From the sequence record MN655998.1: 64,000 nucleotides of DNA; one strand, written 5' to 3'. A program made the position numbers and the translations under genes. Positions 3,205-52,944 of the stretch are shown in pieces; position 1 is the stretch's first letter; every line of letters begins with the position of its first letter. The notes beneath the pieces are model-generated. The model searched no databases. It was not told the origin of the DNA and saw only the letters and a program-made list of their open reading frames with translations. Origin of the DNA: Escherichia phage E26.

Positions 3205-5028
3205 TTATGATTGCATCCAAATTTTGCGCTGATCTGCATCTTCACTATAGAGCAAATCGAATAGCTCTTTATAGTTTTCCGGTAACGTGATGATCTCCAT
3301 GACAGGATCGTTGATCACGCGATGATAGTCTGATTCTGTGAGCGATGCTAAACCTTTGATATATCGAATGTTGTAACCTTTGATATTATCTCGGTCGTTC
3401 TCGAAATCTTCTAGGTCATAATACCATCGAACATCATCACCTTTCTTTGGTTCAGCAATGATAATAGGTGTTTTGATAAACCGGATTCGTCCATCTTCGA
3501 ACAATTCAGGCCAACGTGCAAAGAAAGAGATCAGACTAGGTTTAATAGACCCGATCCCGTCGGTATCCGCGTCTGTCATAATCGCAATATTTTTGTATTG
3601 CATAACTTCCAATGCATCAACACCAAATTGCAAACCAGTGATCGCCATGATGTTAAAAATTTCGGCGTTCTTAACGATCTTTGCCTCCGGTTGTTCCCAC
3701 GTTGTAAGAGTTTTGCCTCGCAACGGGAAACCGCCATGTAAATCTTGATCACGTACAGAGATCAGATAGTTGATCGCGGAATCACCTTCCGTCAAAAACA
3801 GGGTAGTTTCTGCGTCAGTTCCAATAAGGTTAGCTTTAACATGTTTTGCTACCTTAGCCCGTTTCGCTGCCTTTGCTGCCTTAGTCGCTGCCGCTTTATC
3901 GGCTGCCTCTTTGCGTGCCAGGACTACAGCAATAATAGGCATGATAATGTTTTCTTTCTTCGCAATGACTTTAGCCAGCTTTTTAAAATCAAGATCAATA
4001 TGACGCTTGATATCACCAGTCGGGTTAGTCAAGCGTTCTTTTGTCTGTGAATCAAAACGAAGGTTAGGCAATTCACGAACAATAAGAATACAGGTCAATC
4101 CAGACTTAACCGCAGCTTTAGTAACATCAACCTTATATTCTTTCTTGATTCGTTTTACAATCTCTTCACAAAGATCATCTGTCACGTAGTCTACGTGTGT
4201 TCCCCCGTTTTTGGTAAACAGACCATTAGCAAAGGATACTGATTTAAAACCTTCTCCCTCGACCGCAGGAACTAGGGCAAGTGAGAAGTTTTTATCCTCG
4301 ATGACAAACGGATCATCATTGTATAGTTTAGCATAATCCTTAAACTTGCTGGTTATCTTTTTGCCATTAAACTTAAACGTGATCTTAGGAAAGATTACAC
4401 TTAAGGAATACATACGGTCACAAATTACATCTGAAATTTCTTGTGACATGATCATGCCTTCAAAATGATCGAAATCAGGGCAGAATGTAACCTTAGTCCC
4501 TTTCAGCTTTGATGGTTTAGATGACCAACTAATATTTTCAGCGCCATTGGTGCATTGTACGGTCAATTCATTCTCACCATCGCATGTCACACCAGTAAAC
4601 CACGATGAGAAAAATGATGTGAGCGCGCTTCCTATCCCATTCATCCCCATAGTGACACGATTTGTATCATCAAAGTTAGATCCTGCTTTAGCTCGTGTCC
4701 ATGCAGCCACTGGTTGGGGAATCTGTTTCCCTTCTGGTGTAGTGACTATATGTTGTGGAATGCCGCGACCGTTATCTGTTACCGACACAATGTTATCTTT
4801 GATATCTACGCTAATAACATTAGCGTATTCAAAATTAGTGCGGATCGCTTCGTCTACAGAGTTGTCGATAATCTCATCAATAATTTTAACTAGACCGGGA
4901 ACATATGATACTTTGGTCCATTTTCCAAAAAGGAAACGATTATGTGATTCATAAGTCGTTGACCCTATGTACATCGAAGGTCTTTTAAGACAGTGAGCGC
5001 GATCATCTAACAGCAAAAATTCAGACAT
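3205..5028 (-). CDS. 39: DNA topoisomerase II large subunit, GyrB-like ATPase + Toprim (gp39 and gp60 fused)
   Basis: 607 aa; PSMYIGST, DNGRGIP, MTDADTDG motifs; length matches fused 39+60 of non-T4 T-evens. Confidence 0.9.
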   Translation of the reverse strand: MSEFLLLDDRAHCLKRPSMYIGSTTYESHNRFLFGKWTKVSYVPGLVKIIDEIIDNSVDEAIRTNFEYANVISVDIKDNIVSVTDNGRGIPQHIVTTPEGKQIPQPVAAWTRAKAGSNFDDTNRVTMGMNGIGSALTSFFSSWFTGVTCDGENELTVQCTNGAENISWSSKPSKLKGTKVTFCPDFDHFEGMIMSQEISDVICDRMYSLSVIFPKITFKFNGKKITSKFKDYAKLYNDDPFVIEDKNFSLALVPAVEGEGFKSVSFANGLFTKNGGTHVDYVTDDLCEEIVKRIKKEYKVDVTKAAVKSGLTCILIVRELPNLRFDSQTKERLTNPTGDIKRHIDLDFKKLAKVIAKKENIIMPIIAVVLARKEAADKAAATKAAKAAKRAKVAKHVKANLIGTDAETTLFLTEGDSAINYLISVRDQDLHGGFPLRGKTLTTWEQPEAKIVKNAEIFNIMAITGLQFGVDALEVMQYKNIAIMTDADTDGIGSIKPSLISFFARWPELFEDGRIRFIKTPIIIAEPKKGDDVRWYYDLEDFENDRDNIKGYNIRYIKGLASLTESDYHRVINDPVMEIITLPENYKELFDLLYSEDADQRKIWMQS

Positions 5029-12714: not shown

Positions 12715-13350
12715 TCAATCGAATGTAGAAAGCAACTGTTTTGTTTCTTTCAGTTGTCGTTCAAGATTTTTGCGTTTCTCTTTAAGTTGCATTTTAGCAT
12801 TATTTCGCTCTCTTGTAACCTCTTTATCAATGCTCTTATTCCAGTTATCAATATCAGAATAAGTTGGCATACCCAATTCTAAACCTAATGCGGTTGGATG
12901 CAGGGTAACAGTCCATAAACCGCTAATCTTCTTAAATAGGTCTGGGTGTAGTGTACTATCTACATCTTCCGGTGTCAACTCTTTTTCTTCTTTCAGTGGT
13001 GGGTTCTCGTCATATGGTTCCAGTGCATTTACTTTAATATCAGATACCTCATCAAAGAATCCGCGTACATCCGCAGGAAATACACAAGCAATTTCCCAAC
13101 CGTGTTCACGCAGAGAAGTAATATTTTTCACTTCCCCACCATGTGCGATAATTGACGTAACATTACCATCAAGATCCACAGAATTTACAAGAAACGGCTT
13201 ATCGTCTGTCAGATCATTATAAAATTGTGCTTCGGCGGTAGTCATCTCCAGAAAAAGGTCACGAATAGGTCGACCATCTGGTGCATTGCCTTCCTTGAGA
13301 GTGTAGATTCGACTTACGATCCATTTTGGCGGTAAAGTATTAGCGATCAT
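12715..13350 (-). CDS. hypothetical protein
   Basis: ORF tiling; AGGAG RBS. Confidence 0.5.
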   Translation of the reverse strand: MIANTLPPKWIVSRIYTLKEGNAPDGRPIRDLFLEMTTAEAQFYNDLTDDKPFLVNSVDLDGNVTSIIAHGGEVKNITSLREHGWEIACVFPADVRGFFDEVSDIKVNALEPYDENPPLKEEKELTPEDVDSTLHPDLFKKISGLWTVTLHPTALGLELGMPTYSDIDNWNKSIDKEVTRERNNAKMQLKEKRKNLERQLKETKQLLSTFD

Positions 13351-30045: not shown

Positions 30046-30204
30046 TTACTTAATGATACTTACTTTACCAGATCCATGACAATGAGCGCAACACCCATCA
30101 CCGCGCAATCCTGTCCCGTTACAGTGTTTACACGTCTTCAACGGTAAAGCCATTATAGCAAATAAAGCAATAATGAACACCGAAACTAAATTCTCAATAA
30201 TCAT
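30046..30204 (-). CDS. membrane-anchored DnaJ-type zinc-finger microprotein (52 aa, below track cutoff)
   Basis: Hand-translated MIIENLVSVFIIALFAIMALPLKTCKHCNGTGLRGDGCCAHCHGSGKVSIIK; GAGGG RBS. Confidence 0.35.
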   Translation of the reverse strand: MIIENLVSVFIIALFAIMALPLKTCKHCNGTGLRGDGCCAHCHGSGKVSIIK

Positions 30205-30463
30205 AAATCGCCCTCAGTTCTTTATAGCCTCCAATGTGCTCGTTGTCAATGAATATCTGGGGGTATACAAACCGGAGGCTCTTTGAGTTTAGCCTCCCCG
30301 CCAGCTCTTCAATCATATCACGGTCGGGAATAATGTCAACCCCGACCTGCTTGAATACTGGTTTAAGTGTATACGGAATACCCAGATCATCCAGTAGCTT
30401 CATTGCACCAATACAACCATAACAATGATAAGCCTCTTTCGGTATACCGTATATCTCGATCAT
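30194..30463 (-). CDS. nrdH: glutaredoxin-like protein (NrdH-like)
   Basis: CYGC active site, 89 aa, glutaredoxin fold pattern; adjacent to nrd genes. Confidence 0.65.
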   Translation of the reverse strand: MIEIYGIPKEAYHCYGCIGAMKLLDDLGIPYTLKPVFKQVGVDIIPDRDMIEELAGRLNSKSLRFVYPQIFIDNEHIGGYKELRAIYDY

Positions 30464-30966
30464 TTCTCAGCCTTTAATCTTTCTAGTTCTTCTTCCAGTT
30501 CCTTAATGCGCTTCTCGCGTTCAATATCACGTTGGATCTTAGTGGCGAATACTCGTTTAAACTGATTATAGTCATCAATTTTAAATACTTCCTCTTCACC
30601 ATATCGACGTACAGAAACTTCGTAGTTGTTGAAAAATTGTTCCAACATTGCATCAGTGGTCAGTTCTGCCGATACCACTTTAAAATGACGTTCTTCTGAT
30701 TGCAAAAACCAGTTGTGCGCGTATTCCCGTACATCATCAACATTGCGGCAGGTGTATACCGTGCCATCAATTTCAATCACAGAAACATAATTCACATCCG
30801 ATGCATGGTGATCAAATGCGATAACTTTAAATGGACGGTCGCCTATAAACTCTGCTATTGCATCATTTGCAACGCTAAAGTTTGCAAAATCTTCTCTCGT
30901 TTTCTTATCTTTCCACTGATAGGTCACGCCAGCAACAAACATATTACCATCCTCGCTCTTTACCAA
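30460..30966 (-). CDS. paralog family A member 1
   Basis: GVTYQWKDKKTREDF N-motif, C-terminal coiled coil; similar to neighbours. Confidence 0.55.
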   Translation of the reverse strand: MVKSEDGNMFVAGVTYQWKDKKTREDFANFSVANDAIAEFIGDRPFKVIAFDHHASDVNYVSVIEIDGTVYTCRNVDDVREYAHNWFLQSEERHFKVVSAELTTDAMLEQFFNNYEVSVRRYGEEEVFKIDDYNQFKRVFATKIQRDIEREKRIKELEEELERLKAEK

Positions 30967-31480
30967 TCAAAAATTCAACTTCACGACGTTTAATGTCTTC
31001 TTGAAGGTCTTTAATCTTCTGTCGATCTTGCATGATTTCGTCCATCTTGTCAAGTGCTGTAATGAAGTCATCGAAACGTTCAAAGGTTTTACCTTCATTT
31101 GCTTCGCCAAATTTAACCATTGTCAGGCCGTAACGACTACTAAACAGACGTTTCAACTGTCCAACGATTTTAGAATCAGTGGTTATAACTTCCAATTCTT
31201 CTACTTCACGAAAGAATTTTCTATCGAATGGACTAAAGAAATATGTTGACGTCCAAATGTCTTTTCCTGTAGCAGTTTTCGTCGTATGCTCGACCCCATC
31301 GAGTTCTATTACATTAATCCAACCATTATCATCGATCTCGATGATGGTAAATGGCTTGTCACCAATAGCTGCACTAATATCGCTGTTAAGTGGAGAAAGA
31401 ACACCTTCTCCGTTAGTAATAAACTCAGTTTTAGCGTTTTCGTCTTTCCAGGTGTAAGTTTTACCAATTTCCCATTTCAT
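30944..31480 (-). CDS. paralog family A member 2
   Basis: GKTYTWKDENAKTEF; C-terminal FITALDKM + coiled coil. Confidence 0.55.
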   Translation of the reverse strand: MKWEIGKTYTWKDENAKTEFITNGEGVLSPLNSDISAAIGDKPFTIIEIDDNGWINVIELDGVEHTTKTATGKDIWTSTYFFSPFDRKFFREVEELEVITTDSKIVGQLKRLFSSRYGLTMVKFGEANEGKTFERFDDFITALDKMDEIMQDRQKIKDLQEDIKRREVEFLIGKERGW

Positions 31481-31492
31481 AATATAGTCCCC

Positions 31493-31993
31493 TTAACCGA
31501 TTTTATCAAGTTCGTTTAATGCTTTCTCTGCTTCCTGTATAGCTTGCACCCTTTCCGGCATTTTGTCAAGAAAATCTTTCAACTCTTCAAAACTGGAGAT
31601 ATGACGCAAGGCGTTAGCACCGATAGCCGCATGTGATTTGCATTCAAAGCGGATTTTATAATTATCCATCGCCAATTTGAGAAGGTCTATTAGATCATAT
31701 TCATGACCAGGCAATAAAACTTCTTTGAAGCACGCTCGGTCGCCATCGGAAAACCATATATTATCACCAACATCGATAGAACTAATATAATCCCCTTCGT
31801 GATTATAGATTGAACGTACATTACCCCAACGGTCTACCGTAGCGACAGTAAATGGTTTATCTAGATATGTAAACACACCATCAATATTAGGTTTTTGTTC
31901 GTAACGCCAACCATCACGCAAAATACGCTTTTCGTCCTCACCAACCAACTTATATGTCTTCCCTTCTTCCCATTTCATAATATCATCTCTCAT
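31493..31993 (-). CDS. paralog family A member 3
   Basis: GKTYKLVGEDEK; C-terminal LKDFLDKMP + coiled coil. Confidence 0.55.
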   Translation of the reverse strand: MRDDIMKWEEGKTYKLVGEDEKRILRDGWRYEQKPNIDGVFTYLDKPFTVATVDRWGNVRSIYNHEGDYISSIDVGDNIWFSDGDRACFKEVLLPGHEYDLIDLLKLAMDNYKIRFECKSHAAIGANALRHISSFEELKDFLDKMPERVQAIQEAEKALNELDKIG

Positions 31994-32519
31994 TTTTGAT
32001 ACGTGATTCTAATTGGATCATACGGTCGCGCGTTTGCTTATATTCGCGGATAGCACCGATTCGGCTAGGCATACCATCCAGTACGCTCTTAATACCTTCT
32101 AGGGTAGTGATTTTAGCAATGCTATTATGCAATCCTGTCTTATCGATCAACTGAATGTCGTAGGCTTCCATAAGCAGACCCAGACGTTCTAAAGTTAGGT
32201 CTTCTTCTTTTTCTTCCGATTCTGGAATCTTAGGTTCAATAGTAACTTCGGTAAAGAAACGACGCTCAGCAGCCCAAAACCACACACCGGAACAGCCAAT
32301 AGGGGATTCTTTTAACGTCATAGAGTCGAAATCACTACCAATAATAGTAATTTCTCTAACATCACCATCATCGTCAATGTCTTCTACCATAAACGGGCGA
32401 CCAGCCAACAAGTCCACAATACATCTGTTAATAGACGACGAAAATTTAGTCAGTTCGGCTTTCGACGCTTCGCATTCAATCTTGTAAGTTTTACCAACTT
32501 CCCATTCCATAATAATCAC
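31983..32519 (-). CDS. paralog family A member 4
   Basis: GKTYKIECEASKAEL; C-terminal IKSVLDGMP + coiled coil. Confidence 0.55.
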   Translation of the reverse strand: MIIMEWEVGKTYKIECEASKAELTKFSSSINRCIVDLLAGRPFMVEDIDDDGDVREITIIGSDFDSMTLKESPIGCSGVWFWAAERRFFTEVTIEPKIPESEEKEEDLTLERLGLLMEAYDIQLIDKTGLHNSIAKITTLEGIKSVLDGMPSRIGAIREYKQTRDRMIQLESRIKNER

Positions 32520-36858: not shown

Positions 36859-36886
36859 ATTATAGCATACTCCCTTCGCATGTCAA
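36859..36886 (-). promoter_or_regulatory. early promoter cassette (TTGACA-N16-TATAAT)
   Basis: Stem GGGAGTAT/ATACTCCC spans -10. Confidence 0.5.
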
Positions 36887-38061
36887 GCACTAACTTTTTT
36901 CTTTACTGCTTTCACCTTCTGGCGAATTGCTCGAATCTCTTCGATCTCTTTTTCAGTATCTTTAACAATTTCTTTGCGATTCTGAATATCTTTATCGAGA
37001 TTATCATCAAGTTTAGGCAGCATGTCAATCAAGAACTTTTTAAGGTCTTTCAGGTTGCGAATAACAGTACCTTCACCCATTACCGCCACACCTACACCGT
37101 CCGGCAGATCACCAAACAGTTTAACCAGTTCAGACAGATGATCATGATCTTCTAGTGCTTCTTCCGGTTCAGATGGCAGTTCAACAAAGTTATAACGTTC
37201 ATCATTGCTGATCAAGTGATACCAGCAAAGCCCGAAAGATTTCGGTGTATATTCTACACCATCAATTTCAACCGCGTCAACACTTCCATAATCATCTACT
37301 TTAGTTACCTTAAATCCTTGTCCCAGCTTTTGAACAATTTCAACAACATGACTTGATACAGTTTCAGCGGTAAACCAATATGGCAAATTATGCTGATTTG
37401 GCTTGTAGCGTTCACCTACTTTAAATCTCTGACCATCCGCTTGCATAGAATGAAATTGTTGTTTCGTGATTTCCGCGAAGTATTCAAATTCGCTACCGTC
37501 AAACAAGCAATTCCATTGATCACAAAAACGATCCGCCTTAACAGTTTCACCTTTCGCGGTGATCATGGTAGCTGATCCGTGCAATTCTTCTTCAACTAAA
37601 AAGCCATATTCGACAAAATCAACAAGTTTCATAGCTTCTTTGTGATCTGGATCATGCTCTCCCCAGAATCGCTTAAATTCTTGCAAACCTTCTGGTGTAA
37701 ACGAATAACATTTACCTTTTTCAAAGTAAGTCGGCATTGCATCCTCTTTCTTGTTCATCGCTTCGTATGCCTCTTTTGAGATGCGTTTAAAGTATTTACG
37801 CTCATCGTGCATAATCATAGTAGCCCAATAATAAACGATATCCTCAGCGGAATAAACTACATCTCCAGCTTCAATAGTAATAACATGACCGTTGTCATCT
37901 TTTTCTAATACTTTAAAGCCCTTTTCGACGATTTCAGCAACCCGAATATGACCACGGCGCGAAGCATCGGTCAGAATAATTGAATAGCGAGAAAAGTCTA
38001 GAAACTCATCTTTACCACCTTCACGGAATGCATAGTAATGACCTTCAAAGAATTTAGCCAT
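36883..38061 (-). CDS. paralog family A member 6 (three tandem family domains in one protein)
   Basis: Repeats GHYYAFREGGKDEF / GKCYSFTPEGLQEF / GERYKPNQ; ERKYFKRISK; C-terminal LKKFLIDMLP + coiled coil. Confidence 0.55.
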   Translation of the reverse strand: MAKFFEGHYYAFREGGKDEFLDFSRYSIILTDASRRGHIRVAEIVEKGFKVLEKDDNGHVITIEAGDVVYSAEDIVYYWATMIMHDERKYFKRISKEAYEAMNKKEDAMPTYFEKGKCYSFTPEGLQEFKRFWGEHDPDHKEAMKLVDFVEYGFLVEEELHGSATMITAKGETVKADRFCDQWNCLFDGSEFEYFAEITKQQFHSMQADGQRFKVGERYKPNQHNLPYWFTAETVSSHVVEIVQKLGQGFKVTKVDDYGSVDAVEIDGVEYTPKSFGLCWYHLISNDERYNFVELPSEPEEALEDHDHLSELVKLFGDLPDGVGVAVMGEGTVIRNLKDLKKFLIDMLPKLDDNLDKDIQNRKEIVKDTEKEIEEIRAIRQKVKAVKKKVSA

Positions 38062-38124: not shown

Positions 38125-38703
38125 TTAAAGTGACTTTTGGATCTCTTTCAGTTCAGCTACTTTATCGGCGCTGAATTTAGCGTAGGTATCATGTCGAATA
38201 ATTTCACTTTCAAGAAAGGTTTCCAGCCGAGATCTATTTTCAATAAGGAACTCTTTCAGGTCTTCCGCGTTCTTGATAAAGATTTTATTGTCAGTAATGT
38301 CATCTTCAATCGCAAAGGAGATAGAGCGAACTTTACCAAACAAGTTAATCAGATCTTCCAGAGATTCTTCTTTCTTAACTGGTTTCATTTCTTCAAACTG
38401 CTTTTTAGTGATGCGTTTAAAGTATTTGCGCTCGCTTGCATCAATCATGATTGACGCACCCTCATAATCATGAGTTTCTACCAAATACACTTTACCCATA
38501 ACATTAACCGTAAGAACTTTAAAGCCCCTGTGAAGCACACCATACAGGAACTTGTTATGTTGTGGATAGCGTTTAACAAATTCCTCTGCGGACTCAGCAT
38601 TACGGAAAGTGTAATAACGACCTCGTTCAAAAACAGCATCATTTGAAGACTTAGCTGGATACAATTTATACGTTTTCTGTACCATAATACAATCCTCTAT
38701 CAT
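38125..38703 (-). CDS. paralog family A member 7
   Basis: GRYYTFRNAESAEEF; ERKYFKRITK; C-terminal LKEFLIENR + coiled coil. Confidence 0.55.
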   Translation of the reverse strand: MIEDCIMVQKTYKLYPAKSSNDAVFERGRYYTFRNAESAEEFVKRYPQHNKFLYGVLHRGFKVLTVNVMGKVYLVETHDYEGASIMIDASERKYFKRITKKQFEEMKPVKKEESLEDLINLFGKVRSISFAIEDDITDNKIFIKNAEDLKEFLIENRSRLETFLESEIIRHDTYAKFSADKVAELKEIQKSL

Positions 38704-38972
38704 TTCACTAATTGAACAGCACGAAACAGAATGCGGTCACACGGAAGAAGCATAAATTCCCAACGCGGATCAAAGTCTTTAGCGGTATATGTTTTCCCAT
38801 CAACCGAGATTTCACTTACATAACCAATAGGTGACACTTTAAGAACAGTAAATCCATTCTTGATGACTTCGTAGGTATCTTTCAAACCTTCGTAGTCATC
38901 CTCTAAGAAGTCTTTACGTGCTTGCTCAGATTTAAAAACATAGGCAACACCGGATTTAAACATCTTACGCAT
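38700..38972 (-). CDS. paralog family A member 8 (single domain)
   Basis: GVAYVFKSEQARKDF...DGKTYTAKDF. Confidence 0.5.
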   Translation of the reverse strand: MRKMFKSGVAYVFKSEQARKDFLEDDYEGLKDTYEVIKNGFTVLKVSPIGYVSEISVDGKTYTAKDFDPRWEFMLLPCDRILFRAVQLVK

Positions 38973-39533: not shown

Positions 39534-39827
39534 TTAACCATGAATCTTGTTTTTGACTACAAAGGATCGGAACTCATCAAAGCCACCAATATAATCACCA
39601 TCATAGAAAATCTGCGGCATGGTGGCAATAACTTCTACCCCTGCGCGATCCTGAATATCGGCAATGATAGAATCAATCTTTACGGGGCGACCGTTTTCGT
39701 CAACACCATCATTAACCGGAATGTAGATGTAAGGGATCTTACGCGATTCACAAAGGCGCTTTGCATTCTGGCAATACTTACAGTTGTAACCTTCAAAACC
39801 AAAAATTTCTACCATATTATACCTCAA
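39534..39827 (-). CDS. nrdC: glutaredoxin/thioredoxin-like protein (NrdC-like)
   Basis: CKYCQNAKRL active site; PQIFYDGDYIGGFDEF; 97 aa. Confidence 0.8.
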   Translation of the reverse strand: MRYNMVEIFGFEGYNCKYCQNAKRLCESRKIPYIYIPVNDGVDENGRPVKIDSIIADIQDRAGVEVIATMPQIFYDGDYIGGFDEFRSFVVKNKIHG

Positions 39828-42861: not shown

Positions 42862-42904
42862 TTTGATTCTCCTTAAGAAAAGTGTGTTTCGTTTTGATGT
42901 GTGT

Positions 42905-42933
42905 AGTATAGGGGATACGCGATCCCCTGTCAA
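42905..42933 (-). promoter_or_regulatory. early promoter cassette (TTGACA-N17-TATACT)
   Basis: Palindrome GGGGATACGCGATCCCC in spacer; leader GTTTCGTTTTGA. Confidence 0.5.
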
Positions 42934-42948
42934 CAACTTTTTATGATT

Positions 42949-43269
42949 TTAGTGAATTAACTCTACACCAAAATGAGGCACAGAGAACGCCTTACGAAAC
43001 ACATATTCATCATGTTTAGGGATCGCCCCTAACCTCTCTATTTCGCTCGCCATAACGATAAACTGTTTATCTGGTGCATATGCCTTGTGTGCTTCAACAA
43101 CGCACGGAAAACGCGTTTTAGAGAGTTCTGGATAGTTTTCTGAATCCAGAAGGACGATGAATACCCTATTACATTGATTGTAGAATCCTGTTTTTGATTT
43201 CATCAAGTTTTTTTCTATGTACATTTCGTGCAATCTTCCTTTCATGATTTCGTTGGTTCTTGTCTTCAC
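42949..43269 (-). CDS. hypothetical protein
   Basis: ORF tiling; start uncertain. Confidence 0.4.
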   Translation of the reverse strand: MKTRTNEIMKGRLHEMYIEKNLMKSKTGFYNQCNRVFIVLLDSENYPELSKTRFPCVVEAHKAYAPDKQFIVMASEIERLGAIPKHDEYVFRKAFSVPHFGVELIH

Positions 43270-43510
43270 ACTTTACCCACTCAACAAGATCTTTACCTAA
43301 CTCGAAAGCCCATTCTCGGTCTTGCTTTACGTTTTGTAGGTATGGGCTTTCCGACACTCGACGAAGTGATCTTGTCGTAACAAGAATGATCCCAGGAATG
43401 GTCGGATGTTCTTTTCCATATACAATAGGACGCGAGTCACTATCAATACCTTGTAAGAAGGTGTATCCTGAATCACTTAGAATCATATACTTTTTCATTT
43501 CACACATCAC
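43169..43510 (-). CDS. hypothetical protein
   Basis: ORF tiling. Confidence 0.4.
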   Translation of the reverse strand: MMCEMKKYMILSDSGYTFLQGIDSDSRPIVYGKEHPTIPGIILVTTRSLRRVSESPYLQNVKQDREWAFELGKDLVEWVKCEDKNQRNHERKIARNVHRKKLDEIKNRILQSM

Positions 43511-43764
43511 AGATTCCTCAACCAGTTATTAAAGCGAGCAAACCATGATGCTTTTCGTGCTTCTTTTACTTTATGTGCACGAAAACCACTGAAACACCAT
43601 TCATAATCATCACCGAAACATGATTCAACAGGAACACCCGCATTTCGTAGTTCTCTGGTCTTTATCATGAATCCTTGACATAAGGGTCGACCTTCAACAA
43701 TGATAGGAAGTTTAACTTTTTCCATGAAAGTATACCCAGCACGGTCAATAATTTCAATCTTCAT
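43507..43764 (-). CDS. small paralog family B member
   Basis: MKIEIIDRAGYTFMEKVKLPIIVEGR; paralog of 43783..43980. Confidence 0.5.
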   Translation of the reverse strand: MKIEIIDRAGYTFMEKVKLPIIVEGRPLCQGFMIKTRELRNAGVPVESCFGDDYEWCFSGFRAHKVKEARKASWFARFNNWLRNL

Positions 43765-43782
43765 AATATAATCCTCAATTAG

Positions 43783-43980
43783 TTATACCGCCCAGGCTTC
43801 ATTTGCACGAAAACACCATTCATACTCAGGAAAATAACCTTTAATTGGCACGCCAGCTTTTTGTAGTTCCTGCGTTTCTACAAGATAATCAAGCCCATAA
43901 CGACGACCTTCCACGATGATAGGAAGTTTAACGCCATTCATGAAAGAAAATCCACCATCATCAATAATTTCAATTTTCAT
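43783..43980 (-). CDS. small paralog family B member
   Basis: MKIEIIDDGGFSFMNGVKLPIIVEGR. Confidence 0.5.
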   Translation of the reverse strand: MKIEIIDDGGFSFMNGVKLPIIVEGRRYGLDYLVETQELQKAGVPIKGYFPEYEWCFRANEAWAV

Positions 43981-44224
43981 TTACATTGTCTCCATAGATC
44001 TTTCCAGCAATATCAATTTCACCAGCGCGAACATCTAGGATAAGATGCGGTAGGTGTATGCAGTTTTCCCACCCTACGCGCTTCATTTCTTCTACGGTAA
44101 CGTAAGCCCACCCGTTCGCTGTAATAAAGTCTACTTCAACCTTGAGAGGAAAGCAAGACTTTTCTATGTCTTCGAATCCGACAATATGTTTTGTTGTTGA
44201 ATATGGAATATATCCGGTGATCAT
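43970..44224 (-). CDS. hypothetical protein
   Basis: ORF tiling. Confidence 0.4.
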   Translation of the reverse strand: MITGYIPYSTTKHIVGFEDIEKSCFPLKVEVDFITANGWAYVTVEEMKRVGWENCIHLPHLILDVRAGEIDIAGKIYGDNVNEN

Positions 44225-44655
44225 TTTGTGATCTCCTTATACTCAACACACCATAAGCGGGTAGCCCATGATAAACGCTCATAACGCTGGCAGAAATCGG
44301 ACCATAGATATTGTGTACCGTCTTGCATAGTTGAAATATGCGTTTTCTCTCCTACTTTCACGAAAGAAGTATTCGATTTTGTGATCTCGACAGGAGTATA
44401 TCCGAAAGCTGGTTCCAAGTCAACATCTGAACTAAATGCCAATTTAACAGAATTTGTTTTTCTGACCGCTGTCCGGTTTCCTTCTGGGTATAGCACAGCA
44501 GGTTTAGCGCCTAAGCGGATAAACTCAGTATTTTTAATGAACAGAATATCATGATAACCGTCATATTCCGACACTTCCATAGTAACAGGAAAATCGATAT
44601 GTGCTAAACCTGGTAGATCTCGCATGTCATGAAATGTAGCCATCAACTTTTTCAT
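44221..44655 (-). CDS. paralog family C member
   Basis: C-terminal ITKSNTSFVKVGEKTHISTM...YERLSWA shared with 44666..44911. Confidence 0.5.
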   Translation of the reverse strand: MKKLMATFHDMRDLPGLAHIDFPVTMEVSEYDGYHDILFIKNTEFIRLGAKPAVLYPEGNRTAVRKTNSVKLAFSSDVDLEPAFGYTPVEITKSNTSFVKVGEKTHISTMQDGTQYLWSDFCQRYERLSWATRLWCVEYKEITK

Positions 44656-44665
44656 TTTGTATTCC

Positions 44666-44911
44666 TCACTCTTCTGTAATTACTTCATATTCAATTTTCC
44701 ATACATCAATCGCCCAGCTTAAAAGCTCATACGATTTACAGAAAGATGACCAAATATACTGTTTTCCGTGCATCGTTGTTATGTGTGTACGCTCGCCAAC
44801 CTCAACGAAAGACATATTTGACTTTGTGATAACTATAGGAATGCGACCGAAAGCTGGCGGTATTACTGATTCGTTGGTCTTCATTCTATGTTCCTCACTC
44901 TTCTGTTTCAT
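44666..44911 (-). CDS. paralog family C member
   Basis: ITKSNMSFVEVGERTHITTM...YELLSWA. Confidence 0.5.
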   Translation of the reverse strand: MKQKSEEHRMKTNESVIPPAFGRIPIVITKSNMSFVEVGERTHITTMHGKQYIWSSFCKSYELLSWAIDVWKIEYEVITEE

Positions 44912-45131
44912 TTCTTTTATATGGTACTATAACAGGATTAATACAGTAAGCACCAATTACGTTATGAGCACCACAATTTAAGCATTTATAATCATGGAAC
45001 TTATTAAGGAATCGCCCGAACTCATAACCGACTAGCGCCGCATGTACTTGAGTCTCGATCTCATCCATATCAGCCAATGTTTTAACCCTCATATTATAAT
45101 CCTCAAATGGTAGTTTTGCGAAGATGGTCAT
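44895..45131 (-). CDS. hypothetical protein
   Basis: ORF tiling. Confidence 0.4.
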   Translation of the reverse strand: MTIFAKLPFEDYNMRVKTLADMDEIETQVHAALVGYEFGRFLNKFHDYKCLNCGAHNVIGAYCINPVIVPYKRNETEE

Positions 45132-45393
45132 TACATGCTTTTAATGCATCAGTCGCGGTGTCATAGCGAGTATTATCATAGCACCAGTAACCATCTGTCA
45201 ACTGATAAATTAATCCATCCTTTTTAGCTTCGATGAAAGATAACTCTTTGAAAGTTTCTACTTTCTTTACGGATACTCCACGGTCACGGCGCTCATAGAG
45301 TTTAGCTAAAATGCGTTCAGCTTGTTCCTCTTTATCACCAGACAGATCCCAAATAATGTTGCGGATATGTTTGATTAATTGTTCAGCGGTCAT
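45103..45393 (-). CDS. hypothetical protein
   Basis: ATG follows cassette leader. Confidence 0.45.
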   Translation of the reverse strand: MTAEQLIKHIRNIIWDLSGDKEEQAERILAKLYERRDRGVSVKKVETFKELSFIEAKKDGLIYQLTDGYWCYDNTRYDTATDALKACNDHLRKTTI

Positions 45394-45422: not shown

Positions 45423-45450
45423 ATTATAGCACTATGATTTTCATTGTCAA
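45423..45450 (-). promoter_or_regulatory. early promoter cassette (TTGACA-N16-TATAAT)
   Basis: Follows terminator after gp38-like gene. Confidence 0.5.
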
Positions 45451-45460
45451 CACCCAAAAA

Positions 45461-45487
45461 ACAAAAAGGCTATCCCGAAGGATAGCC
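45461..45487 (-). terminator. rho-independent terminator after gp38-like gene
   Basis: GGCTATCC-ttcg-GGATAGCC + U-run. Confidence 0.5.
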
Positions 45488-45494
45488 CATAAAA

Positions 45495-46274
45495 TTACAC
45501 GCGAGCACCGTAGATCGTGCCTACTTTATCCCAGCGAGGGGCATTGCCAGTAACAGCCTTACCAGCCGCACCGCCATTATATTCCGATCCCTGTCCACGG
45601 ATATTACATTTACCACCAGCACCGCCAGCATCACCACCGTTACCGCCATTATATACACCGTTGACAGACCCTTTACCTGGCGCGGAAATAGTACCAGCAG
45701 TAGCACCCCGTTCCATATTAGCAGACCCACCGGCAGCACCAAACGGACGCCCACCACCACCGCCAAAGGTTAATCTCATTTGTGAAAAAGGAGAATAATA
45801 CCCACCGCCGCCACCACCACCGCCACCACAAATAGCGCCGTTATTTGTGATGCGTAAGCGTGTGCCTATACCGTTGTTAATTGCATTACCACCAGCACCA
45901 CCAGCGGAGTTATTGCCACCATTACCACCACGCCCCCAAACATGAACACCGGGGTTAATGATCAATGTTACATATTCGTTTGTTAACGAGCTAGGGAAGT
46001 CAAGACAAGGAACGCCAGTAGATTGGGAAACAATATTACCCGTGATAGTAATTACTACAGGAGTAGACCCTTGTGCTTTCATCCAGTTAATAAGAGTGTC
46101 TTTATTGTAAGAGTTACTAGCACCAATGCTATAATGAATCTCTTTAGAGCGTCCGACCATTGCCGACATATACGCCGGACGACCTAAGCGTACAGCTTGC
46201 ATTGCGGCGCTCATCCACCGTTGACCAGTCTCGGACACCGCAGATGATCCTACCCATCCAGAAGATATTGCCAT
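45495..46274 (-). CDS. glycine-rich gp38-adhesin-like protein (tail-fibre receptor-binding protein homolog)
   Basis: 259 aa; conserved-looking N-domain then poly-Gly motifs (GRGGNGGNNSAGGAGG, GGGGGGGGG, GGGGGRPFGAAGGSA) separated by short variable segments. Confidence 0.55.
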   Translation of the reverse strand: MAISSGWVGSSAVSETGQRWMSAAMQAVRLGRPAYMSAMVGRSKEIHYSIGASNSYNKDTLINWMKAQGSTPVVITITGNIVSQSTGVPCLDFPSSLTNEYVTLIINPGVHVWGRGGNGGNNSAGGAGGNAINNGIGTRLRITNNGAICGGGGGGGGGYYSPFSQMRLTFGGGGGRPFGAAGGSANMERGATAGTISAPGKGSVNGVYNGGNGGDAGGAGGKCNIRGQGSEYNGGAAGKAVTGNAPRWDKVGTIYGARV

Positions 46275-46287
46275 AAAATTTCCTCAC

Positions 46288-46310
46288 AAGAAAAGCCCCA
46301 ATTAAGGGGC
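46288..46310 (-). terminator. terminator-like hairpin just upstream of gp38-like RBS
   Basis: GCCCC-ttaatt-GGGGC + UUUUCUU. Confidence 0.35.
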
Positions 46311-46328
46311 ATTGATTGATAATATTAC

Positions 46329-46550
46329 TTAGATGACCTCGGCTTCACCATCCAGGAAGAAAGACCATGTTTTGTTAGGATAGCGAAGCGCCCAAGATTC
46401 GGCAGTCTTAACACCAGCTTCGAACAATTGACGGCTGGTTACTTTAGCCATACCATCTTCGATGGCAACGTTTTCAATAATCATCGGGTACTTAGCGCCA
46501 CGCATGAAACCGAAACCAGCGGAAGATTTGATAATTTTAACAGTTGCCAT
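46329..46550 (-). CDS. small paralog family B-like member
   Basis: KIIKSSAGFGFMRGAKYPMIIE...QLFEAGV resembles 43507 and 43783 ORFs. Confidence 0.45.
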   Translation of the reverse strand: MATVKIIKSSAGFGFMRGAKYPMIIENVAIEDGMAKVTSRQLFEAGVKTAESWALRYPNKTWSFFLDGEAEVI

Positions 46551-46593
46551 TTTTTTGATTCTCCTAGAAAGTGTATCTCGTTTCGATGGATGT

Positions 46594-46622
46594 ATTATGC
46601 ATTAACACCGGATCGCTGTCAA
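46594..46622 (-). promoter_or_regulatory. early promoter cassette (TTGACA-N17-CATAAT)
   Basis: Conserved leader CATCGAAACGAGA...AGGAGAATCAAA. Confidence 0.5.
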
Positions 46623-46640
46623 CACTTTCTAAGAAAAATT

Positions 46641-46925
46641 TTAAATTAATCGAATATATCCCAGAATTTCAGCACCTTTAGCCAGTCCTAAAACCTCCCA
46701 TTCAAGGTCGCCGTAGTCATAATTTGCAACCATCAGTTCACCATTTTTCATGCAGCAATCATGAGAGAAAATTTGCCCCGCATAAACTACGATAGTAATA
46801 AACTTTCCTGATTCTGGCGGTGTGGAAGACAAAGCGACCATATGACCATTCAGCTTAGTCACCAGTGATGGAACAATAAAATTCGGGCTTACCTGAATGC
46901 AGTTAAATTCGTTTGTGTCTTTCAT
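46641..46925 (-). CDS. hypothetical protein
   Basis: ORF tiling. Confidence 0.45.
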   Translation of the reverse strand: MKDTNEFNCIQVSPNFIVPSLVTKLNGHMVALSSTPPESGKFITIVVYAGQIFSHDCCMKNGELMVANYDYGDLEWEVLGLAKGAEILGYIRLI

Positions 46926-47272
46926 GCCATACCTCGCAAAACACTAATAGCATAATCATGCTGGTTATTCATAATATCAATTGCATTGTGATAACGAGCT
47001 AAACCATCAAGGATAAATTCTTGTTTATCCTGTTTCAGTTTGGTATCACGCGCAGCCATAAGAGCATCAAGAACAGGTCCAAAGTGATTATCTAATTCAT
47101 CTTCGGTTGCAATGTTTCCTATTGCCTCGTCGATCCGTGATTCTAATGCTTGCTTTTCGTTGATCACTTGCTGGGTATATTCCAACACATCAAGAATATC
47201 GCGGGTAACGTCGCCATGATAAGGTATTCCCGCATGAAGATGATCAATTAATCGTTGAATGTCAATGTTCAT
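46922..47272 (-). CDS. hypothetical protein
   Basis: ORF tiling. Confidence 0.45.
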   Translation of the reverse strand: MNIDIQRLIDHLHAGIPYHGDVTRDILDVLEYTQQVINEKQALESRIDEAIGNIATEDELDNHFGPVLDALMAARDTKLKQDKQEFILDGLARYHNAIDIMNNQHDYAISVLRGMA

Positions 47273-47607
47273 TTGTAACCCTCCTCTGAAAGCACATCCC
47301 AGATAATCGGATCAAGGTGCATTAAATTCCACATAATAGAGTCATAACTACCGAAGCCAGAAGTAAAAATTACATCACACTGGCGATATGTCTTATGAAA
47401 ATCGGTGGCTGTCTCTGCATCAATCGGCATATCGTCACCGGAAAGCACCAGACATTTAAGAATCATAACCCTGTTAGCCGTTGGCGCTTGCTTAGTCTTT
47501 TCAGCATATTTTTCGATGATCCGTTTTGCCTTTTCTTCTTTGATACGTCCAGACCAAATCCGGTTTCGGTATTGATTCATAATAATTTCAATCACATCAT
47601 TTTGCAT
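47269..47607 (-). CDS. hypothetical protein
   Basis: ORF tiling. Confidence 0.45.
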   Translation of the reverse strand: MQNDVIEIIMNQYRNRIWSGRIKEEKAKRIIEKYAEKTKQAPTANRVMILKCLVLSGDDMPIDAETATDFHKTYRQCDVIFTSGFGSYDSIMWNLMHLDPIIWDVLSEEGYK

Positions 47608-47806
47608 TCTTCACGGTCTCCATAATTGTTTTGTAAGCCAGTTTAAGATGATCACCGAAAAACTTTGCAGTGTTACCATTCGGATCGCGGAGCATGGTTT
47701 CTACGATCTCATCGGCAGTAACAATTTCTCCTTTCTTTGCTGCATGTTCTACCATATACTTCAAAGTTTCTTCGGAAGCAAGTGCTGCGGCTACTGGATT
47801 AATCAT
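47597..47806 (-). CDS. hypothetical protein
   Basis: ATG follows cassette leader. Confidence 0.45.
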   Translation of the reverse strand: MINPVAAALASEETLKYMVEHAAKKGEIVTADEIVETMLRDPNGNTAKFFGDHLKLAYKTIMETVKNAK

Positions 47807-47835
47807 TTTGATTCTCCTTTGTTGTCGATGTGTGC

Positions 47836-47864
47836 ATTATGCTATACCCTATTCCGGTTGTCAA
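47836..47864 (-). promoter_or_regulatory. early promoter cassette (TTGACA-N17-CATAAT)
   Basis: Conserved leader; follows terminator. Confidence 0.5.
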
Positions 47865-47875
47865 CACCTAAAAAC

Positions 47876-47900
47876 AAAAAAGCCACCCTTTCGGATGGCT
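47876..47900 (-). terminator. rho-independent terminator
   Basis: AGCCATCCGAAAGGGTGGCT + UUUUU. Confidence 0.5.
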
Positions 47901-48854: not shown

Positions 48855-48862
48855 TATTTATA
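48855..48862 (-). promoter_or_regulatory. late-promoter-like motif TATAAATA
   Basis: About 35 nt upstream of secreted-protein ORF 48519..48821. Confidence 0.35.
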
Positions 48863-51684: not shown

Positions 51685-52149
51685 TTATTGGTCCACTTTC
51701 AAAACAACCGCCGACATTTTACCCGCCAGTCGTTTTGGATTCTCTATAATCATTCGGCAGCATAGACCGTGATACGGCTTACCATCTTCAATTAGGTCTA
51801 CTGTCATCCCGATCCACATGTTACCGTCAGTAATTTCTAATCGATTAGGTCGGTTTTCCATTTTCAGGAAGTCGAAGATCTCCGGCAAACGAGTTTCTAT
51901 CTTATTGAATAGTTCCATTGTCTTATGTTCATCGATATGACGATCTGTTAGACGGTCGATCATATGCGGACTAAAGCGAATGAAAATATACTCACCATAA
52001 CCATCATTCAAGCACTTTTCTTTGATCTGCGCATTGGTTTTGCGCATTTCGGTTTCGAAGAATCTACGCAGCTTACTACGGCGAACATGTACGTTAATTG
52101 TTTCCATTTTATTATCCTTTCTTAAACAAATTGCGAAGCCAGTATACAA
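51685..52149 (-). CDS. hypothetical protein
   Basis: ORF tiling. Confidence 0.45.
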   Translation of the reverse strand: MYTGFAICLRKDNKMETINVHVRRSKLRRFFETEMRKTNAQIKEKCLNDGYGEYIFIRFSPHMIDRLTDRHIDEHKTMELFNKIETRLPEIFDFLKMENRPNRLEITDGNMWIGMTVDLIEDGKPYHGLCCRMIIENPKRLAGKMSAVVLKVDQ

Positions 52150-52447
52150 ACGGGATTTCTTTAAACTTGAATTTCTCTATAGTTAATTCTTTAGTAGCAA
52201 GATGAATACCATAAGCATCATGTGTCACGATATGCCATTTTCTATAGTCCAAATGTGAACAACCGTCTGGATCTAGATTAATAAGAGTTTCTCGCTCACT
52301 AGGATTATTTTTCCACAATTTTGTAATCGGATCGCACATAATTCGACCTAGCGTACCATGAATAATCTCACAACGGTAAAGTTTTCCAGCAGTGAGATAG
52401 GCGCACCCGTCATAGTCGGTATAAACAAACACTTCTTTAACACTCAT
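52112..52447 (-). CDS. paralog family D member (start after cassette)
   Basis: GKLYRCEI...CSHLDYRKW. Confidence 0.45.
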   Translation of the reverse strand: MSVKEVFVYTDYDGCAYLTAGKLYRCEIIHGTLGRIMCDPITKLWKNNPSERETLINLDPDGCSHLDYRKWHIVTHDAYGIHLATKELTIEKFKFKEIPFVYWLRNLFKKG

Positions 52448-52478
52448 TTTAATACTCCTTTGTTGTTTCGATGGGGGT

Positions 52479-52507
52479 ATATTACTACCCCCGTTTTGTT
52501 GTGTCAA
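52479..52507 (-). promoter_or_regulatory. early promoter cassette (TTGACA-N17-TAATAT)
   Basis: Stem GGGGGTA/TACCCCC. Confidence 0.45.
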
Positions 52508-52768
52508 CTACTTTTTCAAGATTTTTTTGAGTGCATTCCAAAGACCTTTATTCTCAGGTTGTTTTGGTTCTTCGATCAGTGTCCACGGACGGTCGTCTAA
52601 GTATGCACAGCTTTTCAGAGAAATAAAAAGTTTATATCCTTTATCATCTTTGATGTAACCGTAGGTAGACATTCTTTCATCTGGCGTAAACTTATACAGT
52701 TTATTTGGGGTGATGTAAGATCTACTACTATAAGGTGTCATTACATATTTCATGGTACTAACTCCCAT
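52508..52768 (-). CDS. paralog family D member
   Basis: TPNKLYKFTPDER...CAYLDDRPW. Confidence 0.45.
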   Translation of the reverse strand: MGVSTMKYVMTPYSSRSYITPNKLYKFTPDERMSTYGYIKDDKGYKLFISLKSCAYLDDRPWTLIEEPKQPENKGLWNALKKILKK

Positions 52769-52944
52769 TTATCACCGCGAAGATGAGAACATCTACCATC
52801 AATAAGTATAGTAATACGAAACCCCGCATCATCTTCAATATACCCGATAGTCGGTGGATGTTCGTCTTCTCGTGCCGGAGTAAAATCATACATCTTACCA
52901 GGCGTAATATCTTGTCCTTTATTGCTATTGGTATAAACTTGCAT
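52750..52944 (-). CDS. paralog family D member
   Basis: TPGKMYDFTPARED...CSHLRGDKW. Confidence 0.45.
   Translation of the reverse strand: MQVYTNSNKGQDITPGKMYDFTPAREDEHPPTIGYIEDDAGFRITILIDGRCSHLRGDKWELVP

Follow-up and report, generated by a model that had tools for sequence, protein, structure and literature searches.

Introduction

The early genes of T4-type phages remain for the most part without an explanation, and this report concerns a cluster of such genes, here named B and C after their two domain types, in Escherichia phage E26 (record MN655998.1; the stretch of 64,000 nucleotides that was analysed is called the window). The closest described systems come from related phages. At the T4 dmd-tifA locus, segmental amplification and a compensating deletion arose by short-homology recombination in the laboratory (Srikant, Guegler and Laub 2022, PMC9391042), and genes of the T4 nrdC region are dispensable host-range factors, among which the accessory gene nrdC.5 counters a defence gene (PMC9391042). 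In RB49 and phi1, promoter-stem-loop cassettes termed PeSL are associated with modular shuffling (Arbiol et al. 2010, PMC2839356; PMC4122927), and the nrdC-tk interval is already known as a plastic region of this phage group (PMC2839356). Lastly, Gp54 of Escherichia phage Bas11 (PDB 9axb), a beta-barrel of about 65 amino acids (aa), directly activates the CapRelSJ46 defence (PMC11578894).

The locus in the window resembles each of these systems in part. As in the T4 amplification, small early accessory genes of a T4-type genome are gained and lost in tandem via short homologies. However, the T4 copies are recent, identical and selected in the laboratory, whereas the B and C copies are old, with 53-60% aa identity. 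The near-identical tandem repeats at one microhomology that mark the T4 accordion are therefore absent here (the copies share 68-72% of their DNA), although the logic by which one repeat is left after a loss is common to both. The locus shares its phage group and its plastic regions with the PeSL modules, and PeSL-like repeats (42884-42942 and 46566-46642) flank B3 and the array. Unlike PeSL exchange, the B and C copy-number indels have their end-points within the unit, either in paralogous coding sequence or at stop-Shine-Dalgarno (SD)-ATG junctions. Gp54(Bas11) is described as a six-stranded barrel, whereas the model of the C1 C-domain has five strands and a short helix; with 10% identity between them, and no sequence match to Gp54(Bas11) found even at E<=10, the likeness does not amount to membership. 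The paralogs and duplications described here are not mentioned in the literature on RB49/phi1 PeSL (PMC2839356) or in a review of T4 genomes, and a literature search on Krischvirus paralogs and anti-defence returned nothing specific.

Over the 4 kb around the B and C genes, identity is 98.4% with Escherichia phage vB_EcoM_011D4 and 93% with RB49, Phi1 and JSE, values that place the window in Krischvirus, i.e. among the RB49-like T4-type myoviruses. We hold with moderate confidence that small early accessory genes with two kinds of SH3-like domain are arrayed in tandem at the locus, where an ancient core has been reshaped by recombination and the products probably act as binders. Small SH3-like beta-barrel domains of two types, B and C, would be the building blocks of the array genes. 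Six B-type genes, C2 and two unrelated small open reading frames (ORFs) would form one unit read from a sigma-70-type early promoter (45450-45423), with B3 as a separate single-gene early cassette. The core genes C, X, B1, p072 and p071 may already have been there before Krischvirus; B1 would have been duplicated within Krischvirus to yield B2, and a B-type domain would have been fused to a C gene to yield C1, with the C-only cassette C2 in some lineages. Genes would be gained, lost, fused and swapped by recombination between paralogs and between short stop/SD/ATG junction sequences. Their products would be early non-enzymatic binding modules, each probably with a different host (or phage) macromolecule as partner in take-over or counter-defence; the hydrophobic core would be kept while surfaces and charges vary, and B1 would be in faster allele turnover.

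Results

A B-type domain in six genes and probably a seventh

The first-pass annotation, made from the letters of the window, had described B1 and B2 as clear paralogs, B3 as a more diverged third copy, and C1 and C2 as a second family with about 60 conserved C-terminal residues. All of these ORFs are present, and the whole locus lies on the - strand (Table 1). All-vs-all blastp comparison of the window's 395 ORFs with a length of 40 aa or more, the set also used for scans with hidden Markov models (HMMs), aligns B1 with B2 at 53% identity over 66 aa (E value 1.3e-20), B3 with B1 and B2 at 31-32% identity (4e-4 and 2e-3), and C1 with C2 at 60% identity over 65 aa (9e-26). Among PHROGs, phrog_7345 is matched by B1 (1.1e-38), B2 (1.3e-35) and B3 (4.9e-34), each across profile positions 1-66 of 66, and weakly by p072 (7.8e-3), and both C1 and C2 match phrog_16117 and phrog_10407. 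The three relationships are thus borne out, and the similarities survive statistical alignment by blastp and, independently, comparison with PHROGs.

The B domain was found to extend further than these pairwise comparisons reveal. A word-indexed homolog search with B yielded 29 matches, all of them Krischvirus proteins, and an exhaustive profile search of 1.84 billion representatives matched 35 proteins. Two of these, P0047 and P0059, are large Cna-B-repeat proteins in which many short stretches were matched, and were rejected as repeat-driven false positives on sequence inspection; P0056 was set aside as a further Cna-B-repeat false positive from the same match pattern, its own sequence unread. 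The remaining matches are phage proteins of about 70 aa with the pattern MKVKLLNDGGY-x-x-M-x-x-V-x-FPVVVEG ... EL-x-R-x-GA ... W-x-F ... EVIE, and several of the distant ones are two-domain fusions. A wide B HMM was built from distant phage homologues and Krischvirus B1-, B2- and B3-type orthologues, with the candidates' own sequences left out, and family matches were accepted where they cover the core G-[YF]-x-[FM] ... [FL]-P-[IV]-x-V-E ... E-L-x-[RK]-x-G. Searching for homologs once more, this time with the wide profile, brought in hardly any new members or names.

When the window ORFs were scanned with the wide HMM, the known members B1 (5e-27), B2 (2e-26) and B3 (4e-19) were followed by p071 (8.5e-9, 29.9 bits, aa 38-93 of the long ORF 42949-43269), p072 (1.4e-6, 22.8 bits, ORF 43169-43510), the N-terminus of C1 (1.3e-4, 16.4 bits) and X, after which the next ORF has an E value of 0.57. 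The top score among 9875 shuffled ORFs (25 database equivalents) is 13.2 bits, below those of p071, p072 and the C1 N-domain. Profile comparison with hhalign gives 92% for p071 (E 6e-7), 94% for p072 (E 9e-8) and 84% for the C1 N-domain against the B profile; X reaches 74% as a single sequence and 57% with a 4-sequence X profile. An X-like ortholog, 52% identical, occupies the equivalent array position in the outside locus L021, which favours membership of X by context. These findings indicate that six consecutive genes from 42949 to 44655, together with B3, bear one B-type domain of about 65 aa in seven occurrences, with X a probable but not secure member. The C-domain, of about 60 aa, occurs twice, at the C-terminus of C1 and in C2.

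Consequently, the earlier division into two separate families fails, as the N-terminal half of C1, p072, p071 and probably X also bear the B-type domain. Homology to the B domain was considered and rejected for the C-domain (hhalign 0.4%) and for family D, another set of small paralogs in the window (hhalign 0.7% against the B profile). The array genes are full-length, high-scoring members of existing PHROGs, namely 7345 (B1-B3), 16316 (p072), 17411 (p071), 15979 (X) and 16117/10407 (C), with 6261/15978 for family D, and each of these PHROGs is annotated 'unknown function'. PHROGs hold apart what the wide profile joins, i.e. 7345, 16316, 17411, the N-terminus of 16117 and probably 15979. In T4 genome positions 1-80 kb, searched in six frames, no match to the B profile has an E value better than 0.3, and this part of T4 thus offers no named gene as a functional anchor.

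Outside relatives and age of the array

B1 and B2 are the sole reciprocal closest relatives in the array (70.5 bits, versus 41-49 bits to outside proteins). The nearest relative of p072 is domain a, the first, of the 156-aa protein P0048 (39% identity, E 9e-11), and that of p071 is domain b, the second, of the same protein (39%, E 2e-5). B3 finds its nearest relatives outside Krischvirus (P0073, 35% identity, E 2e-10), X and the C1 N-domain are nearer to outside proteins than to their array neighbours, and the C1 C-domain is 65.5% identical to a C-only gene of the outside locus L017 versus 60% to C2. Recurrent local duplication, as proposed in the first-pass annotation, is therefore directly supported for B1 and B2 only. 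At the DNA level, the copies are old (72% identity for B1/B2, 68% for C1/C2); orthologs in sister phages are 93-98% identical.

The arrangement of the array recurs in diverged T4-like contigs. In L017, which encodes P0048, a C-x2-C ORF precedes a C-only gene of 60 aa; next come a B1-like gene that shares the C-terminal helix motif (RFNHFLKGL), the fused p072~p071 gene, an element resembling PeSL and a homolog of the 47597-47806 ORF. L021 carries C-only, X-like, B1-like (with helix), p072-like and p071-like genes, which is the order of the window minus B2. In L020, six B-domains are spread over four neighbouring genes, of which two are double-domain; this array lies upstream of genes for Mom-like, Dam and glutaredoxin proteins (the nrdC position), on the same side of dam/nrdC as that of the window. 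Unrelated small phages, including those of Proteus, Iodobacter and Pantoea, have 1-2 B copies among early, replication and recombination genes. The synteny of L017, L021 and L020 and the outside closest relatives indicate that a core array of C, X, B1, p072 and p071 is ancient, predates Krischvirus and was inherited as a block. The same comparisons indicate that B2 is likely a Krischvirus-level duplicate of B1 that has lost the helix and that C1 arose when a B-type domain was joined to a C gene; C2 would be a cassette brought in from elsewhere or else an old duplicate that most lineages have lost.

A side observation concerns L020 (2918-5752, Logan SRR8048117_3724), in which the array is followed by Mom-like and faint QueC-like genes before Dam and glutaredoxin. 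This hints at a syntenic spot with a different DNA-modification module.

B1 departs from its neighbours in the degree of conservation. In PHB13, phiS, G2248 and UPWr_E1, B1 is 58-68% identical to that of the window, and its flanks are more conserved (X 96-99%, p072 85-94%, about 94% DNA identity for the region overall). The divergent alleles have nonsynonymous (dN) and synonymous (dS) distances of ~0.3 and ~0.35-0.45, with dN/dS of 0.65-0.85 in three of the four phages and 0.36 in UPWr_E1, well above the neighbouring genes on small counts and by a simple method. B1 thus looks like a replaced, fast-evolving allele inside conserved flanks, and the values would indicate relaxed or diversifying selection, or allele import, with positive selection unproven.

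Some of these observations would also be expected if the array had arisen chiefly from related cassettes of other phages, taken up horizontally and independently of one another at PeSL or gene-junction sequences. B3, p072, p071, X and the C1 N-domain each have nearer relatives outside Krischvirus, B3 is a self-contained promoter-gene-terminator cassette, C2 resides on a sporadically distributed 229-bp cassette between 27-bp repeats, the B1 allele is swapped as a patch within conserved flanks, and exchange of modules via PeSL elements has been described in RB49 and phi1 (PMC2839356). However, the order C, X, B1, p072, p071 in L021 and the p072~p071 fusion in L017 argue for block inheritance, and the nearer outside relatives are mostly uncultured T4-like contigs and may be plain orthologs. 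We consider this history rather unlikely.

Predicted fold and candidate functions

An AlphaFold2 model of B1 made with a 20-sequence alignment (predicted local distance difference test, pLDDT, of 86) has a small barrel of about six strands, one short helix and a C-terminal helix at residues 71-84. In the corresponding model of C1, the C-domain (residues 85-144) has a pLDDT of 80-91. With 5-6 strands and structural matches to SH3, KOW or integrase C-terminal domains, the modelled domains are predicted to have an SH3-like small beta-barrel fold. This nearest fold class holds the retroviral integrase C-terminal domain, KOW, eukaryotic SH3 and FeoA. A structure search of BFVD with B1 matched only uncharacterised proteins, which come from a wide range of phage groups.

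P, V, L and F fill the invariant or near-invariant columns of the family alignment, and no conserved residues of catalytic type were found. The isoelectric point (pI) of the members spreads from 4.7 to 9.6 (B2 4.7, X 4.8, p072 9.6). We favour the interpretation that the B-type proteins are early non-enzymatic binders for host take-over or counter-defence, with non-redundant targets, because the conserved positions are core residues, because surfaces and net charge vary widely between members, and because members sit in early accessory regions of unrelated phages. A role in take-over or counter-defence is suggested since the T4 counterpart region holds at least one counter-defence gene, nrdC.5, and non-redundancy since the members are kept under purifying selection.

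The main functional rival to protein binding is nucleic-acid binding by the basic members, in which case the B-type proteins would be regulators like integrase C-terminal domains, KOW or OapB. The acidic pI of B2 and X speaks against this, as does the family alignment, in which no conserved basic patch was found, and we judge such a function to be improbable. A bolder extension of the binder interpretation is that the array is a battery of small beta-barrel decoys or inhibitors, each for a different host immune sensor or effector, with a Gp54-like C-domain recognisable by CapRel and with B1 in an arms race, as its allele replacement and high dN/dS might suggest. This idea is distinctly doubtful. 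If it were true, the host range on E. coli strains that carry defence systems would depend directly on which members a phage has gained, lost or fused.

Copy number and recombination junctions among Krischviruses

Copies were counted with HMMs on eight Krischvirus loci, the window included, and range from five to seven for B-type and from one to two for C, a variation among relatives that agrees with the plasticity described in the first-pass annotation. The window has seven B-type and two C copies. RB49 and GEC-3S have seven and one and lack C2; JSE, UPWr_E1 and G2248 have six and one and lack B2; PHB13 has six and two, the C1 N-domain being lost by a +1 frameshift in an A-run; and phiS has five and one, without B3 and with a C2/C1 recombinant. 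The PHB13 change (L007 ~3640-3700, which corresponds to window ~44535) is an extra A in the C1 A-run that severs the N-terminal domain, with an annotated 345-bp ORF remaining, and could be either a real inactivation or a homopolymer sequencing error.

Several junctions can be read at nucleotide resolution. The 229-bp C2 cassette is bounded by the 27-bp repeat ACAGAAGAGTGAGGAAyAyArAATGAA (repeat family D12; copies 89% identical, spacing 229 bp), which contains the end of the gene upstream (its last codons and stop codon), the SD sequence and the ATG, and is single-copy in RB49 and JSE. The B2 indel relative to JSE, of 216 bp, ends exactly at ATGAArATTGAAATTATTGA, a sequence at the start of both B2 and B1. 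In phiS, a deletion fuses C2 to C1 at the common sequence CCAGCTTTCGG and yields a product that resembles database protein P0038. In the multiple alignment, the copy-number indels end at shared sequences of 11-27 bp within one transcription unit. Further database proteins have comparable structures: P0027 joins the B3 N-terminus to the X C-terminus, P0029 joins the 47597-47806 ORF to the B2 C-terminus, P0037 is the C-x2-C ORF fused in frame to C2, P0041 is C1 without its N-domain, and P0004 has a B2-like N-terminus on a B1 body. Judged by their sequences, these proteins and P0038 appear to show the same recombination processes as the Krischvirus indels.

These results bear on one form of the first-pass proposal, in which recent, recurrent in-situ tandem duplication would make the region an active hot spot now. 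Adjacent and clearly homologous pairs (B1/B2 and C1/C2), copy number that differs among close relatives, and the readiness with which T4 makes tandem amplifications (PMC9391042) would all fit. However, the relatives differ by repeat-bounded presence/absence indels, a frameshift and allele replacement, and near-identical recent B or C duplicates were not seen in any of the eight genomes. Moreover, the paralogs share 68-72% DNA identity versus 93-98% for sister-phage orthologs, most members are nearer to other phages' proteins than to their neighbours, the array order is kept in diverged contigs, and C2 is as far from C1 as outgroup genes are. A duplication hot spot of the present day is thus quite unlikely.

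Operon organisation and coding evidence

The array genes are closely packed, with SD sequences and stop/start overlaps such as the TGATG that joins the B1 stop and the p072 start. Downstream of the promoter at 45450-45423, the next strong early promoter is at 42933-42905, inside a PeSL-like repeat, and no convincing terminator was found between the two. This arrangement suggests that the unit from 45393 to 42949 holds nine genes (the 96-aa ORF, the C-x2-C ORF, C2, C1, X, B2, B1, p072 and p071), which appear to be translationally coupled. The GEC-3S record annotates promoters at equivalent places, and the array is probably read early. B3 has its own promoter (46622-46594) and terminator (46310-46295).

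Minus-strand promoter cassettes of ~60-85 nt recur in the window at 42884-42942, 46566-46642, 47818-47884, 52444-52527 and 57790-57873, and also at 58494-58552, 58749-58832, 60293-60376 and 60751-60827. They contain TTGACA ... TATAAT-like elements, often a GC stem-loop in or beside the spacer, and a conserved leader with SD sequence, and they match the published PeSL elements of RB49 and phi1. They also yield spurious similar ORFs (m_42583, m_57794, m_58753 and m_60364; on the + strand p_46428, p_47670 and p_60706).

The glycine-rich gp38 adhesin gene (45495-46274, considered together with 46275-46328) stands alone between two terminators within the early-gene region. The late-promoter motif TATAAATA was not found upstream of it, and only two copies occur in the whole window, at 48855 and 59017. 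The gene is missing from this locus in UPWr_E1, G2248 and phiS.

The position of gp38 between B3 and the operon might suggest that the small genes are accessory factors for this adhesin or for tail-fibre assembly. This role is very unlikely because the array persists where the locus has no gp38, with both B3 and the array kept in UPWr_E1 and G2248. In addition, the array promoter is of early type, terminators separate the array from gp38, and homologs in unrelated phages lie among replication and recombination genes.

Between the window and the seven other Krischviruses, Nei-Gojobori dN/dS is mostly 0.0-0.3 for array members and neighbours, and 0.15-0.31 for p071 orthologs. Together with the SD sequences and the stop/start overlaps, these low values argue that the small ORFs are real genes. 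The opposite notion, that they are not genes and that their similarity is repeated non-coding DNA, has the very short ORFs and their uniform annotation as hypothetical in its favour, but is scarcely credible given ortholog dN/dS well below 1, protein-level similarity that exceeds DNA-level similarity, SD sequences with coupled stop/start codons, confident AlphaFold2 folds and homologs in unrelated phages.

Layout of the locus and neighbouring features

The RB49 map has the order nrdC, dam, about 25 small hypothetical ORFs (the gp38 adhesin among them), rI.-1, rI and tk. The B and C genes are likewise small early-strand ORFs between nrdC/dam and rI/tk, with content that varies among the eight Krischviruses, and their placement in the nrdC-tk plastic region of RB49-like phages was correct. 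The same placement fails for family D, which lies beyond tk, although its paralogy holds: D2 (52508-52768) and D3 (52750-52944) are 43% identical (E 3e-10) and D1 (52112-52507) and D2 are 30% identical (E 0.02), while phrog_6261 is matched by D1 (2e-37) and D3 (1e-27), and D2 matches phrog_15978 and weakly 6261. The start of D1 is probably at 52447. For C2, the most likely start is the ATG at 44884, behind a GAGGAA SD sequence (the first-pass ORF was 44666-44911).

Table 1. Features of the B/C locus and family D in the window.
Feature	Position	Strand	Description
p071-like gene	42949..43203	-	RB49p071 ortholog, 84 aa; B-type domain; last of the array
p072-like gene	43169..43507	-	RB49p072 ortholog, 112 aa; B-type domain and basic C-terminal helical tail
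B1	43507..43764	-	85 aa; predicted SH3-like small beta-barrel and C-terminal amphipathic helix; hypervariable allele among Krischviruses
B2	43783..43980	-	65 aa; probable B1 duplicate without the C-terminal helix; missing in JSE, UPWr_E1 and G2248
X	43970..44224	-	84 aa, RB49p075 ortholog; probable divergent B-type domain
C1	44221..44655	-	144 aa; putative N-terminal B-type domain fused to C-domain (aa ~85-144)
27-bp junction repeat, right copy	44651..44677	-	stop codon, SD sequence, ATG; flanks the C2 cassette
C2	44666..44884	-	72 aa; C-domain only; on the 229-bp cassette missing from RB49, JSE and GEC-3S
27-bp junction repeat, left copy	44880..44906	-	flanks the C2 cassette
C-x2-C ORF	44895..45092	-	65 aa, RB49p077 ortholog; upstream of the C genes; probably same operon, outside the family
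First operon gene	45103..45393	-	96 aa, function unassigned
Sigma-70-type early promoter of the nine-gene unit	45423..45450	-	TTGACA, 16 nt, TG-TATAAT; 12/12 matches
Intrinsic terminator after gp38	45467..45488	-	just upstream of the operon promoter
Terminator after B3	46295..46310	-	
B3	46329..46550	-	73 aa; predicted single-gene early cassette upstream of gp38; diverged B-type member
B3 early promoter	46594..46622	-	inside a repeated PeSL-like promoter cassette (repeat families D2, D3)
Family D, three tandem paralogs	52112-52447/52507, 52508-52768, 52750-52944	-	between regB and nrdC.11

In Krischviruses, p072 and p071 overlap by 35 nt (43169-43203) in different frames, whereas L017 (1253-1726) has them as the one two-domain protein P0048; either a split or a fusion would have occurred.

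Other paralogs were seen in the window. A larger family has four tandem ORFs of ~165-180 aa at 30460-32519, with E values between neighbours down to 8e-13, and relatives at 12715-13350, 36883-38061, 38125-38703 and 38700-38972, one of them 18 kb away. It is related to RB49 ORFs annotated frd.2 or 'goF-like' and is presumably family A of the first-pass annotation. The ORFs 45103-45393 and 47269-47607 are 37% identical over ~50 N-terminal residues (E 0.014 in the window-only search) and belong to different PHROGs; they may be another weak paralog pair. The nrdH-like (30194-30463) and nrdC-like (39534-39827) genes for redoxins align across 87 aa at 33% identity (E 1e-9) and represent the glutaredoxin/thioredoxin paralogs expected in T4-type phages.

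Discussion

The interpretation of the locus as an ancient, recombining array of small binders faces several findings that weigh against it. X is borderline, as its score with the wide HMM (E 1e-3, 13.7 bits) barely exceeds the best shuffle, at 13.2 bits. The N-terminal half of C1 was modelled poorly (pLDDT <55), and its B-type fold has sequence support only. Pfam and NCBIfam scans of all members gave no match above noise, and sequence searches of the PDB with the B and C profiles returned unrelated proteins at best (E 1.4 and 0.08). The PHROGs of all array members are annotated 'unknown function', which counts against the functional part in particular. Early timing relies on promoter consensus and on the annotation of another record. 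The dN/dS values are simple Nei-Gojobori estimates from small counts, and values below 1 do not demonstrate positive selection. Finally, ancient duplication and independent acquisition are not cleanly separable for B3, the C1 N-domain and C2.

The feature itself is ordinary, being an accessory gene family that has expanded in one lineage within an already known plastic region and not a new kind of system; database records have listed the genes as hypothetical proteins ever since the RB49 genome. The new elements are modest: the merged domain family, a core array that appears to be conserved in diverged T4-like phages, the mapped junctions and the hypervariable B1. The indels described above form a natural, sequence-resolved record of how short-homology recombination reshapes plastic regions, and the 2.5-kb unit is a concrete target that could be deleted to look for host-range or counter-defence phenotypes. 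If the merged family holds, five separately catalogued 'unknown' families of RB49-like phages would be one family of small beta-barrel domains, and these phages would harbour fewer independent unknowns.

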